From NCBI RefSeq assembly GCF_006345805.1, contig NC_043000.1, positions 125,178,001 to 125,242,000 on the forward strand: a stretch of DNA of 64,000 nt, read 5' to 3'. The notes beneath the pieces are model-generated. The model saw only the letters and a program-made list of their open reading frames with translations. It was not told the DNA's origin and searched no databases. How positions within the stretch are numbered: position 1 is the first letter of the stretch; each line of letters starts with the position of its first letter. The DNA comes from Octopus sinensis (Eukaryota). The translations under genes and the position numbers were made by a program. Shown here piece after piece: positions 41,778 to 45,318 of this stretch.

Positions 41778-43073
41778 ATGCCTACAAAAACAGAAACCAC
41801 CCTAATCAACTTAAACGAAGAAATCCTACAGGAACTCAAAAACATCAACACCAACCTCTCTGTACTAGTCAACAAATTGGACTCCACTAATGAGGAAACC
41901 ATTACCGGACACAAACCCTCCGAAATCGGCGATAAGCTACAAACTCTGTGTGATACAATCCACACCTTTTTCACCACCACCAACCCAGCCAAAAACAAAG
42001 AAGAACCATGTCAAATTGATTCATACAAACTGAAAAATCGTATAATCCCAGAATGGAACAAATCCCTCAGAGACAGAAAGTTCTCCTTCTGGAAAATGAT
42101 TAGAAACAACAACAAGGCCGAGATATACGAAAAATGGATGAACTCTACCCCTCTAACTCTTCCCCGCAAAATACAATTAAAAGCCATTCCCAATGAACCT
42201 GAACCTCAAAGACGACTTAGGGAAAGAATGGCATTAGAGAGACTGAAAACAGAGATTGAACTTCTCAAATTAAGGGCCCAAACAAATGAGGAAAGAGTCA
42301 AAACAATCGATGAAGAGATCCTCCTCATAATAAATAACAGGGCCGAAAGACTCCACATAGAGAAGATCTCCAATTTATGGAAAGATGACTGCAACAAAGA
42401 GGAACTAAAATCCCTACAACGCTGGGAAAAAAGTGCCACCTGGTTCCTAAACTATGAATCGACTTTCAAAACGGATTACTCTTCCAATAACCCGTTCATA
42501 AAAATGGGAAAACCAGGAACCCAACCACACAACTACTCCGCCAACCCTCCAACCTCGAACAAAAGAAGGAAACAGCATATTGAAGATGTACCTTCTTACC
42601 CCACGTCCATAAGGAGGAACAAGAACCCTGGAAACCCTCACCACCAGAATTACATTAACGAATTTCCCCCTTCAAGGAGACACTATACACAACAACTCAA
42701 CAACTACTCGAATACCTTATTAACAAATAAAAGAGGATTCCACTACCAGGATAGACACAACAACATCCACACCACGAGGGGACAACAAGGTAATTTTCAC
42801 TTTCTCAACTCTCACAATACACAACAAGCCCATACCACTCGATACAAGCACCCACGTAGGTCACTCATATCACCACAATCCAACATGACACAAAGAAACA
42901 CACACCAACACCCGCAATACAGGAACACCCCATTCTATCCACAACCACGAACCCGAACCATATTTCACAACAAGGAATATAACAAACACACAGGACCTCT
43001 TATCACCAACAGACAACCCCTCTACCCCAACCATTTTTTAGACACAGCACACAGATACAGGCAAACAAAATAA
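41778..43073 (+). CDS. PLE ORF1, 431 aa; putative coiled-coil N-half and N/Q/H/R/P-rich disordered C-half
   Basis: Uninterrupted ORF from ATG 41778; heptad-like LINLNEEILQELKNINTNLSVLVNKL and RERMALERLKTEIELLKLRAQTNEERVKTIDEEI. Confidence 0.75.
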   Translation: MPTKTETTLINLNEEILQELKNINTNLSVLVNKLDSTNEETITGHKPSEIGDKLQTLCDTIHTFFTTTNPAKNKEEPCQIDSYKLKNRIIPEWNKSLRDRKFSFWKMIRNNNKAEIYEKWMNSTPLTLPRKIQLKAIPNEPEPQRRLRERMALERLKTEIELLKLRAQTNEERVKTIDEEILLIINNRAERLHIEKISNLWKDDCNKEELKSLQRWEKSATWFLNYESTFKTDYSSNNPFIKMGKPGTQPHNYSANPPTSNKRRKQHIEDVPSYPTSIRRNKNPGNPHHQNYINEFPPSRRHYTQQLNNYSNTLLTNKRGFHYQDRHNNIHTTRGQQGNFHFLNSHNTQQAHTTRYKHPRRSLISPQSNMTQRNTHQHPQYRNTPFYPQPRTRTIFHNKEYNKHTGPLITNRQPLYPNHFLDTAHRYRQTK

Positions 43074-45318
43074 CACAGGACAGGGAAGAGAAACAGAAAC
43101 TAATTAAAGTCATCAATTTAACCAATACAGAACCCAACCCCAACCTTCTCAACTTACTCTCCAAAGGTCTTAAATTCACCCCCCCCCCACGTCCAAACTA
43201 CTACGAAATGAAGGAAGACATTACAGAATTTTGTAGAAAATTACGACTTAGTGAGGAACTATTCGACCAGCACAATGAGGATGAGTCACTAGCTAGAAAT
43301 AAAAGCAACTGCACCCCACCAAAAGGTAGAAATAAAATCCTAGACGAATTCTGTGAGCACATTACAAACTTCCCCTACCAACACTTACACAAACCAAAAC
43401 CCAAACCAAACCTCAACAAGAAAGAGTGGGAAGAATTAAACAAATTAAAAAATGAAAGATCTATCACCATTAAAGAGGCCGATAAAGGAAGTGCAGTAGT
43501 CTTAATGGAGACAGAATACTATATCAACTTAGCACTCTCCACCTTGGAAAATGGAACATATCACGAAAAGGCTGAACACTACAATCAACAGAAAATTATG
43601 AGAAACTTAAAAACCTTGATCAACCCCCACAAAGAAGAACTCACTAACAAAGAATTCAACTTCATCACAAATTTCACTAGTAAAAAAGCGAATTAATAAG
43701 TAAGGCATGCAAGGAAGCCACAAACTCTGTAATAAATGCCCCCTCACCAAATGACCTCAAATTGAGACCTATAATAGCAGGTCCCGCTTGCAAAACCCAC
43801 CGCCTTAGCAACTTCATTGATACCCTTCTCAAGCCCTTCCTCAAACACATTAAAAGCTACATAAGGGACGATCTAGATATGCTCAACCACCTCCCCAATA
43901 CACTTCTTGCTGAACAAACCCTGCTAGTAACATTCGATGTAGTTAATCTTTACTCCAACATCCCCCACAACCTAGGAATAGAAGCTATCCAATTCTGGCT
44001 GGATAATTACTCCAACGAACTCCCACACCACATCAAAAAGGAATTTATTTTAGAAGGACTCAAATTCATCTTAGAGAATAATTTCTTCACCTTCAACAAC
44101 AAATTCTACAGACAGAAATCAGGGACGGCAATGGGAACGAAAACAGCTCCCACTTACGCCAACCTAGTCATGGGATACCTGGAAATCACCCTCTAAAATA
44201 ACGTTCTTAACCAATTTGGCACCACTCTCCACACACACATAGAGAAGAACTGGAAGAGATATCTTGATGACTGCTTCATCCTTTGGCCCGAAACCATCGA
44301 GAAGCTTAAAGAATTTCACACCCTTATAAATGGGCTCAACACAAACATTGTTTTCACAATGGAATACAGACCTCAACAAATTCCCTTCCTCGACATCCTC
44401 ATTAAAATTCACAACAAAAAAATAGAAACAGACATATACTACAAGCCCACAGACTCCAAGCAATACCTCCCTTTCAATTCATGCCACCCTAGGCACGTTA
44501 AAATTAACATTCCCTACAACTTAGCCAAGAGAATTTGCACTATAGTCTCCAATAAAAACACCCGTCTCTTACGTCTACAAGAACTTAAGGACACATTAAC
44601 AAGCAGGGATTACCCCACGTCACTAATTGACAATGGGATCCAACGCGCCCTAAAACTCAGCACACAGGAACTTAGACGCCCTAAACCTGTTACATCGAAA
44701 CCCCATACTCTACCATACATCTCTACACACAACCCCCTCAACAATGAAGCTTTTGACACCATCCTCCAGAACATTCCTGTATTAAAAAAGGATCATAGAA
44801 TGAACCAAATCCTCCTAACACACGAAATCATAAAGAGCAAAAGGCAACCCGAATCATTGAAAACCATCCTAACAAATGCCAAAGTACTGCCAACCACAAC
44901 AACTAAACCCACAGTAAACAAATGCAATAGACCCAACTGTGGTATATGCATCAACCTAATAGAAGGTCCAGAATTCCTTTTTAAACAAGGACGTTTCACA
45001 GTAAAACACAACTTCACATGCGCATCAGAAAACCTAGTATATGTCTTAACTTGCTCGGGCTGTAATGAACACTACATGGGCCAAACTAAAAATAGCCTCC
45101 GCCAACGGATGACTGTCCACAGATCCCAAATAAAAATACAGGAATACAGAAAAATAGCACTTAGTGCACATATTGATACCTGTGCCGCACAACTTCATCC
45201 CAATTTTAGAATCTTTCCCCACTACAAATTTAAAGACAATGCCACTCATACCCAGCGAATAACCATGGAATCCCACCTCATTAATTAATACAGACCACTT
45301 CTAAACACATTCCCCTAA
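43040..45318 (+). pseudogene. PLE reverse transcriptase + GIY-YIG endonuclease, inactivated
   Basis: VINL..LLSKGLKFTP, ITIKEADKGSAVV, LRPIIAG, FDVVNLYSNIP, YRQKSGTAMGT, WKRYLDD (YLDD 44260-44271), IPFLD, YYKPTD, CNRPNCGIC linker, NLVYVLTCSGCNEHYMGQT; lesions: frameshifting deletion near 43685 removing the YGLPKIHK motif, TAA at 44194 and 45286. Confidence 0.93.

Follow-up and report, generated by a model that had tools for sequence, protein, structure and literature searches.

A Penelope-like element in the genome of Octopus sinensis belongs to a family that probably expresses its reverse transcriptase (RT) by programmed -1 ribosomal frameshifting. The element lies in a 64,000-nucleotide (nt) stretch, hereafter the window (NCBI RefSeq assembly GCF_006345805.1, contig NC_043000.1, positions 125,178,001 to 125,242,000, forward strand), where positions 40890-46342 form a single retroelement flanked by (TA)n runs. 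Judging from its domains, it is a decayed endonuclease-bearing (EN+) Penelope-like element (PLE), probably of the Neptune type. Its first open reading frame (ORF1) overlaps an RT frame in the -1 register, and the two meet at the slippery heptamer T TTT TTA. We put the probability that a programmed -1 frameshift at this junction gives a gag-pol-like fusion of ORF1, RT and endonuclease at about 0.85, on the strength of comparative sequence evidence. The overlap, the heptamer and its phase are conserved across a large clade.

The original prediction placed the heptamer in ORF1 phase at 43034-43040, 30 nt before the stop, and described a -1 frame open from 42983 with the motif VINL..LLSKGLKFTP and no ATG until 43208; all of these coordinates hold. 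ORF1 begins at ATG 41778 and encodes 431 amino acids (aa). It ends in CAT TTT TTA GAC, nine further codons and a TAA at 43071-43073, which makes the heptamer-to-stop distance exactly 30 nt. The -1 frame is open over 42983-43696 and encodes KVINL...LLSKGLKFTP. The heptamer holds the sole run of six Ts in 41778-45317, a coding stretch of 3.5 kb with a T fraction of 0.20. ORF1 contains a second in-phase heptamer of the X XXY YYZ form; this one, G GGA AAA at 42506, was set aside because the -1 frame open to the RT starts only at 42983.

Protein homologues indicate that the T run is kept in one reading phase. From 152 ORF1 homologues, the 73 of at least 340 aa were counted and 79 shorter ones were excluded by length alone. 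The dipeptide FL, which T TTT TTA would encode, occurs within the last 45 residues of 61 of the 73 long homologues (60 of 72 without the query), compared with 4 and 5 of 73 in upstream control windows and a mean of 6.5 in 2000 shuffles (maximum 14). FL is preceded by H, S, R, N, P, Y, D or L. The residues whose codons are unable to end in T (K, E, Q, M, W) never precede FL in these 61 proteins, although 22% of the residues in the tails are of these kinds (P 3e-7 if kinship is ignored). The alternative phase of T6-AG, which would read FFR or FFS, is found in none of the 73. Together, the FL dipeptide, the bias in the preceding residue and the lack of FFR or FFS point to T TTT TTx read in a single phase. 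Among the excluded short homologues, 18 of 79 carry a late FL; three have it exactly 10 codons from the stop and two (P0087, P0098) at fewer than 10, and the latter appear to be truncated, with their ends inside the core or close to it.

The same layout is found at the DNA level. ORF1 alignments had diverged too far to serve as seeds for searching DNA, and the RT alignment was used instead; it recovered at least 73 loci in a metagenome scan covering 17 of 64 parts, while no relative was matched in viral contigs. An ORF1-profile match is present in eight of the 73 loci listed, and all eight have T TTT TT(A/G) in ORF1 phase with the RT at -1, so the check proposed in the original prediction, that family members should keep the heptamer and the offset, favors its gag-pol-like reading. 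Two further loci (L016, L019) have the same heptamer and a -1 RT on contigs that start too near the junction to show the ORF1 core. Loci with a junction plus the window were grouped into nine families, with L011 and L050 merged with their near-copies L008 and L010; L017, which is related to L009 but decayed and lacking one T, and L013, which is too short, stand outside this count. The heptamer is U UUU UUA in six families and U UUU UUG in three. Across the nine, the RT frame is open over 118 of 118 overlap codons, whereas the 868 codons upstream contain 66 stops (P about 1e-4), and in five it is closed 0-3 codons 5' of the heptamer. Eight have no ATG ahead of the conserved RT motif, which is located 14-65 codons past the heptamer. 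In the RT tree, six junction loci and the middle RT piece of the window share one starred clade of 14 rows beside a single-ORF group; the trees were built with FastTree from only the sequences gathered in this analysis, and their deep branches are tentative.

Some features of these loci were recorded in their own right. The ORF1 stop at 11 junctions is TAA (6) or TAG (5) and never TGA. An apparently intact head-to-tail tandem is present at L011:71-5354, with an ORF1 of 434 codons and an RT-EN frame of 784 codons followed by a second ORF1 and junction. The PLE RT loci L001-L006 are in contigs filed as bacterial genome bins and are probably misbinned host DNA.

The octopus copy itself is dead downstream of the junction and has an intact ORF1. 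It has a net 34-nt deletion near 43685, where other copies carry extra bases, and a stop at 44194-44196, where they have a sense codon; neither lesion is found in the main contigs of those copies. A further early stop lies at 45286-45288. Given these private lesions, the -1 offset could be one more mutation of a dead copy in a family that otherwise has one long ORF, as in the sister group (L002, P0238 and others), whose members carry an in-frame N-terminal domain. The original prediction named such a private indel as an outcome that would refute it, and the other copies speak against one. In contigs from four runs aligned to 41650-45400, no frame-changing indel is listed within 42691-43177, where one run has an in-frame 3-nt deletion. 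The heptamer is spanned without gaps by three contigs from three runs (X3 record 26, depth 1646; X2 record 21; X19 record 11). Insertions at 43179-43181 sum to +3 in three runs, and the contig of a diverged family aligns only at 43022-43061, with 255 loose letters either side. Moreover, the -1 layout recurs in all eight ORF1-bearing loci, and the sister-group N-terminal domain has no profile match to ORF1 (hhalign probability 0.3%). A private mutation is thus refuted to the point of being scarcely conceivable.

Several observations weigh against frameshifting. FL is missing from 12 of the 73 long homologues. Three of 120 RT matches also match the ORF1 profile (P0201, P0202, P0161); these are eukaryotic gene models joining ORF1 to RT, which we read, from the protein models alone, as probable automated predictions across the junction. 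The called start lies upstream of the motif in 36 of 76 close RT proteins and inside or after it in 38. In a sub-clade formed by P0003, P0006 and P0014, a Trp at the position of the window's stop can place an ATG in the RT frame; P0154 and the loose contig ends at 43061 served as comparison cases for such an ATG. These three proteins stop 20 codons past FL, twice the usual spacing, which may be chance as they are one group. L019 likewise carries an ATG before the RT motif. On the basis of the sub-clade and L019, the RT may be initiated separately in some lineages. In prokaryotic gene calls, GTG and TTG starts are likewise given as M.

Such starts raise the alternative of termination-reinitiation, in which ribosomes would complete ORF1 and begin again, in the -1 frame, at the ORF1 stop or close to it, and the U run would act as a tether at a fixed distance. 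Termination-reinitiation is reportedly used for the second ORF of SART1 and of the long interspersed element LINE-1. The 10-codon spacing from heptamer to stop would suit it, as would the ATG at a matching place in the close sub-clade and L019 and the 36 early called starts. Reinitiation nevertheless needs no open frame between heptamer and stop, yet that frame is open in all nine families. Over the stop, the RT frame reads ATA, GTA, CTA or TTA, with ATG in 0 of 11 junctions. UGGGA, said to be the core of the termination upstream ribosome-binding site, is missing in 14 of 14 cases from the 110 nt that precede the stop. L015 and L016 have the conserved RT motif 60-65 codons past the heptamer and no ATG. 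We consider reinitiation unlikely.

Splicing offers another route to the RT frame. The original prediction allowed that TTTTTTAG might be a 3' splice acceptor, through which a spliced RNA would link an upstream exon to the RT. Introns are retained in PLEs (PMC8557442), TTTTTTAG follows the T run in five of the nine families, the residue after FL has a G-initial codon in 45 of 61 proteins, and automated gene models fuse ORF1 to RT as noted above. The other four families, however, have TTTTTTGT or TTTTTTAT after the run, and their next AG ends 13-76 nt further downstream. A splice acceptor would have no need of a single ORF1 phase, yet the other phase is never seen in the long homologues, and a G after the heptamer is conserved and functional in HIV-1 (the type 1 human immunodeficiency virus) as well (PMC4373837). 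Splicing from a 5' untranslated region would leave 43208 as the first ATG, losing the invariant L..GLKF.P motif. Of 19 joints in the contigs of other copies, none of the 15 listed lies at 43041; such contigs drop rare forms, and this result was not used as evidence. The variable AG and the fixed phase make a splice acceptor very improbable. Taken together, the fixed phase, the -1 frame open from the heptamer, the lack of starts and the lack of a constant AG argue for tRNA slippage on U UUU UUA or U UUU UUG.

Four distant PLE lineages with unrelated ORF1s (L021, L023, L025, L037) show the same -1 layout. At L021:1827-3758 and L023:1650-3473, an ORF1 of 607-643 aa directly precedes T TTT TTA G, with the RT frame at -1; this ORF1 ends in a domain that resembles GDS(L) by eye and has no Pfam match. 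Its stop lies 10 codons on in L021 and one codon on in L023, where a possible pseudoknot was equalled by one of 40 shuffles. At L025:3567-3610, and in L064, a 630-aa ORF1 has a G GAT TTT heptamer, a stop two codons on and, 8 nt 3' of the heptamer, a hairpin or pseudoknot rich in GC. Common to L023 and L025 are thus a stop within two codons and, 7-8 nt downstream, a hairpin or possible pseudoknot. The RT ORF of L025 and L064 ends without an endonuclease, and a separate GIY-YIG ORF comes next (L064:4261-5451). At L037:1215-1270, an A AAA AAC heptamer has its stop exactly 10 codons on; the RT ORF is again without an endonuclease, and the junction overlaps telomere-like CCCTAA/CCCAAAA repeats. These lineages also bear on polymerase slippage, by which an extra base added on the T6 run in some RNAs would allow in-frame readthrough. 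Conservation of a homopolymer run is what such a process predicts. Codon phase is not required by it, yet the phase is fixed, and the non-homopolymer heptamers G GAT TTT and A AAA AAC occupy like junctions. A T6 run is also short for polymerase slippage, which we regard as exceedingly improbable.

Under programmed frameshifting, a minority of ribosomes would slip back one base at U UUU UUA and produce the ORF1-RT-endonuclease fusion, which in an intact copy would be about 1,190 aa (421 + about 772, by our own arithmetic). Most would stop 10 codons later and release free ORF1 of 431 aa. The size of the frameshifting minority would then set the ORF1:RT ratio, as in gag-pol expression. In reticulocyte lysate, U6A alone gives 4-6% -1 shifting (PMC3458567). 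The heptamer would therefore slip unaided, and any stimulator in the window family would be something other than local RNA structure. The original remark that no obvious stimulatory hairpin is visible is borne out: 43041-43110 folds at 0 kcal/mol (z +0.5), a crude pseudoknot scan of the window was empty, and the best long-range duplex was equalled or beaten by 22 of 30 shuffles. The hairpin or pseudoknot 5-9 nt 3' of the heptamer that is standard for -1 signals is thus lacking in the window, and a significant hairpin is present in only two of the nine families (L007 and L019, z about -4). Known eukaryotic -1 signals mostly depend on RNA structure or a bound protein.

The distance from heptamer to stop suggests a different stimulator. 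In all of the 64 proteins measured, FL lies at least 10 codons before the ORF1 stop, and in 20 of them the distance is exactly 10. A geometric model for the same 64 expects 25-35 below 10 codons and about 2 at 10; the ten spacer residues are only 10% alike across proteins. In the DNA loci, the 10-codon spacing is found in five of nine families. Eukaryotic disome fragments measure 60-64 nt (PMC12086091), which implies about 30 nt per ribosome. In E. coli reporters, -1 slipping of a ribosome is stimulated when the one ahead of it has stalled at a stop, with a peak at a 9-codon spacer (PMC6815119), and a similar collision model has been put forward to explain the +1 shift of Salmonella ugtL (bioRxiv 10.1101/2024.09.11.612453). 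As 10 codons is about one ribosome length, and given the E. coli precedent, a ribosome terminating at the ORF1 stop fits as a roadblock that would hold the next ribosome on the heptamer. This step, the one that we favor, is put forward tentatively. The collision idea was formulated before the distant lineages were examined; two of the four (L021, L037) have exactly 10 codons and both are structure-free (P about 0.007, assuming a chance of 0.035 each).

Other results tell against the collision step. Nineteen of the 20 exact-10 proteins fall in one 24-row clade with the window and are non-independent; because they share this clade, the 10-codon spacing is best read as an inherited length kept over long branches, not as 20 events. 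Other families have 12, 17, 19 or 20 codons, and some of these are structure-free (L015, L008/L011), which the collision step leaves unexplained. Exact-10 spacing is not significantly associated with lack of structure (1 of 7 versus 3 of 6, P 0.27). Termination in eukaryotes is perhaps also too fast for queues to form. We therefore regard as possible, with the odds somewhat against it, that PLEs carry a natural, structure-free class of eukaryotic -1 signal, in which a heptamer exactly 10 codons (one 80S length) before the ORF1 stop makes a colliding ribosome slip, under a rule common to lineages with unrelated ORF1s and different heptamers.

ORF1 belongs to a sizeable family of proteins. A phmmer search found 553 cluster representatives (50%-identity clusters) at E<=1e-3 and 211 at E<=1e-10. 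No in-frame ORF1-RT fusion is present among the best 150 of the 553 matches, the longest of which has 496 aa, and none was found among proteins of 869-2480 aa in a search that is weak by the tool's own caveat. The predicted structure has six helices, with a predicted local distance difference test (pLDDT) score of 94-99 for residues 81-240 and under 50 for the tail. No Pfam family matches ORF1 and none recurs among 74 family members. Fold searches returned generic helical matches only, the lone match at E 4e-4 having a TM-score of 0.13; a search of the atlas gave no usable match, and neither Pfam nor fold searches matched ORF1 to Gag. With its modeled helical core and disordered basic tail, free ORF1 is presumably a ribonucleoprotein or structural protein.

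The features of the element are summarized in Table 1. A PLE-type RT with the N-terminal GxKF and DKG motifs is present. In this decayed copy, the GIY-YIG endonuclease match (PF01541, E 6e-4) is under the curated cut-off; the domain is also found in L015, L016 and many RT relatives. The pseudo-long terminal repeats (pseudo-LTRs) have an inverted arrangement plus a short direct repeat, and contain an internal duplication of ~140 nt with 74% identity (45823-46099 and 41090-41366). The Cx4CxxC linker at 44923-44949 fits the CX2-5CxxC criterion for Neptune, a linker common to Nematis too. The gap from CxxC to the next Cys is long and by eye resembles the Neptune, unlike the Nematis, rows of Fig. 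S2 in PMC8557442. The linker and this by-eye comparison make placement in Neptune probable. The best named RT match (59%) is to an Octopus sinensis protein, and the nearest further ones are from Argonauta, Mytilus and Saccostrea. No hammerhead ribozyme was matched by Rfam in the window, where Rfam yielded repeat-driven matches only; a hammerhead-like core, possibly decayed, was judged by eye near 46190-46213, and an intact-looking core is present in L010, one of ten loci scanned.

Table 1. Features of the Penelope-like element, in window coordinates.
Feature	Positions	Strand	Remarks
5' inverted pseudo-LTR	40890..41657	-	Inverted copy of 45534-46303 (blastn self-comparison, 772 nt, 95.7%); beside (TA)n run
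Short direct repeat of element 3' end (46225-46342)	41641..41757	+	119 nt, 92.4%; immediately 5' of ORF1
ORF1, 431 aa, intact	41778..43073	+	All-helical N-terminal ~240 aa conserved, then low-complexity N/Q/R/H/T-rich tail
Slippery heptamer T TTT TTA, ORF1 phase, then G (43041)	43034..43040	+	From the sequence; kept in relatives
Ten unstructured codons and ORF1 stop TAA	43041..43073	+	Candidate ribosome-collision spacer (putative function)
RT frame, N-terminal part, -1 to ORF1	42983..43696	+	VINL...LLSKGLKFTP at 43109-43183; first ATG 43208; IKEADKG motif
RT, middle part	43684..44196	+	Pfam RVT_1, E 3e-5; out of frame via private deletion near 43685; ends at premature stop
RT C-terminal part, linker and endonuclease	44197..45318	+	Cx4CxxC at 44923-44949; GIY-YIG at ~45034-45156 (Pfam, E 6e-4); early stop 45286-45288
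3' pseudo-LTR region	45534..46342	+	Ends in (TA)n; blastn self-comparison

Elsewhere in the window, an open frame at 39009-39575 (+) resembles by eye a decayed LINE-type RT C-terminal fragment. Long, near-perfect inverted repeats lie outside the element at 9264-10540 and 56509-58529 (550 nt, 97%; several of 150-230 nt, 96-100%).

Canonical EN+ PLEs are described as single-ORF elements (Craig et al. 2021, PMC8557442), and a contrast of single-ORF EN+ with two-ORF endonuclease-less PLEs is drawn in PMC6431247. The window differs from Neptune and other canonical EN+ PLEs in that a separate conserved ORF1 precedes the RT at -1. Esterase-bearing ORF1 proteins are reported for Penelope-like elements in Repbase (PMC3905857). 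According to the legend of Fig. 1 in PMC8557442, ORF1 may be set apart by a frameshift that is accompanied by a pseudoknot; the clade is unstated in that legend. Frameshifts at ORF1 in PLEs have, then, already been mentioned in print. The case meant is reportedly that of the endonuclease-less Athena/Terminon elements of Arkhipova et al. 2017. In the PLE type of the legend, as in the window, a frameshift links the PLE RT to an ORF1 that is helical or coiled-coil. That type has a pseudoknot, whereas the window has an endonuclease and no pseudoknot or hairpin, and most relatives of the window are without either. No publication on an EN+ PLE frameshift or the 10-codon spacing was found in a literature search that had Arkhipova 2017, Gladyshev 2007, Repbase and Dfam outside its scope, and the excerpted text of PMC5408684, PMC3846280, PMC5718144 and PMC4209133 contains nothing on PLE frameshifts.

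Parallels outside the PLEs are partial. HIV-1 gag-pol likewise uses U UUU UUA, usually followed by G, to fuse a structural ORF to a polymerase (PMC4373837, PMC3458567). In the ORF1 homologues, the residue after FL is most often Gly (24 of 61 proteins). HIV-1, however, has a stem-loop stimulator, in contrast to the scarcity of significant hairpins in the window clade, whose ORF1 is without a Gag match. In the bacterial collision cases, as in the window, a slippery site lies one ribosome length before a stop and is structure-free; one of them is synthetic, with a peak at 9 codons, and one is +1, whereas the PLE signal would be natural, conserved, eukaryotic and -1, at 10 codons. In SARS-CoV-2, a nearby stop lets the pseudoknot refold, a mechanism unlike collision (PMC8168617).

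A large EN+ PLE clade, with named relatives in octopus, argonaut, mussels and oysters, combines an ORF1 family lacking a Pfam entry with a gag-pol-like layout. This two-ORF layout departs from the single-ORF description and accounts for the truncated RT starts in gene calls. The relatives form a natural spacing series of 10, 12, 17, 19 and 20 codons, with and without hairpins. Should the collision step also be true, the ORF1:RT ratio would track ribosome load as well as the speed of termination. The terminating ribosome would then represent a novel type of stimulator, coupling retrotransposition to translation load.

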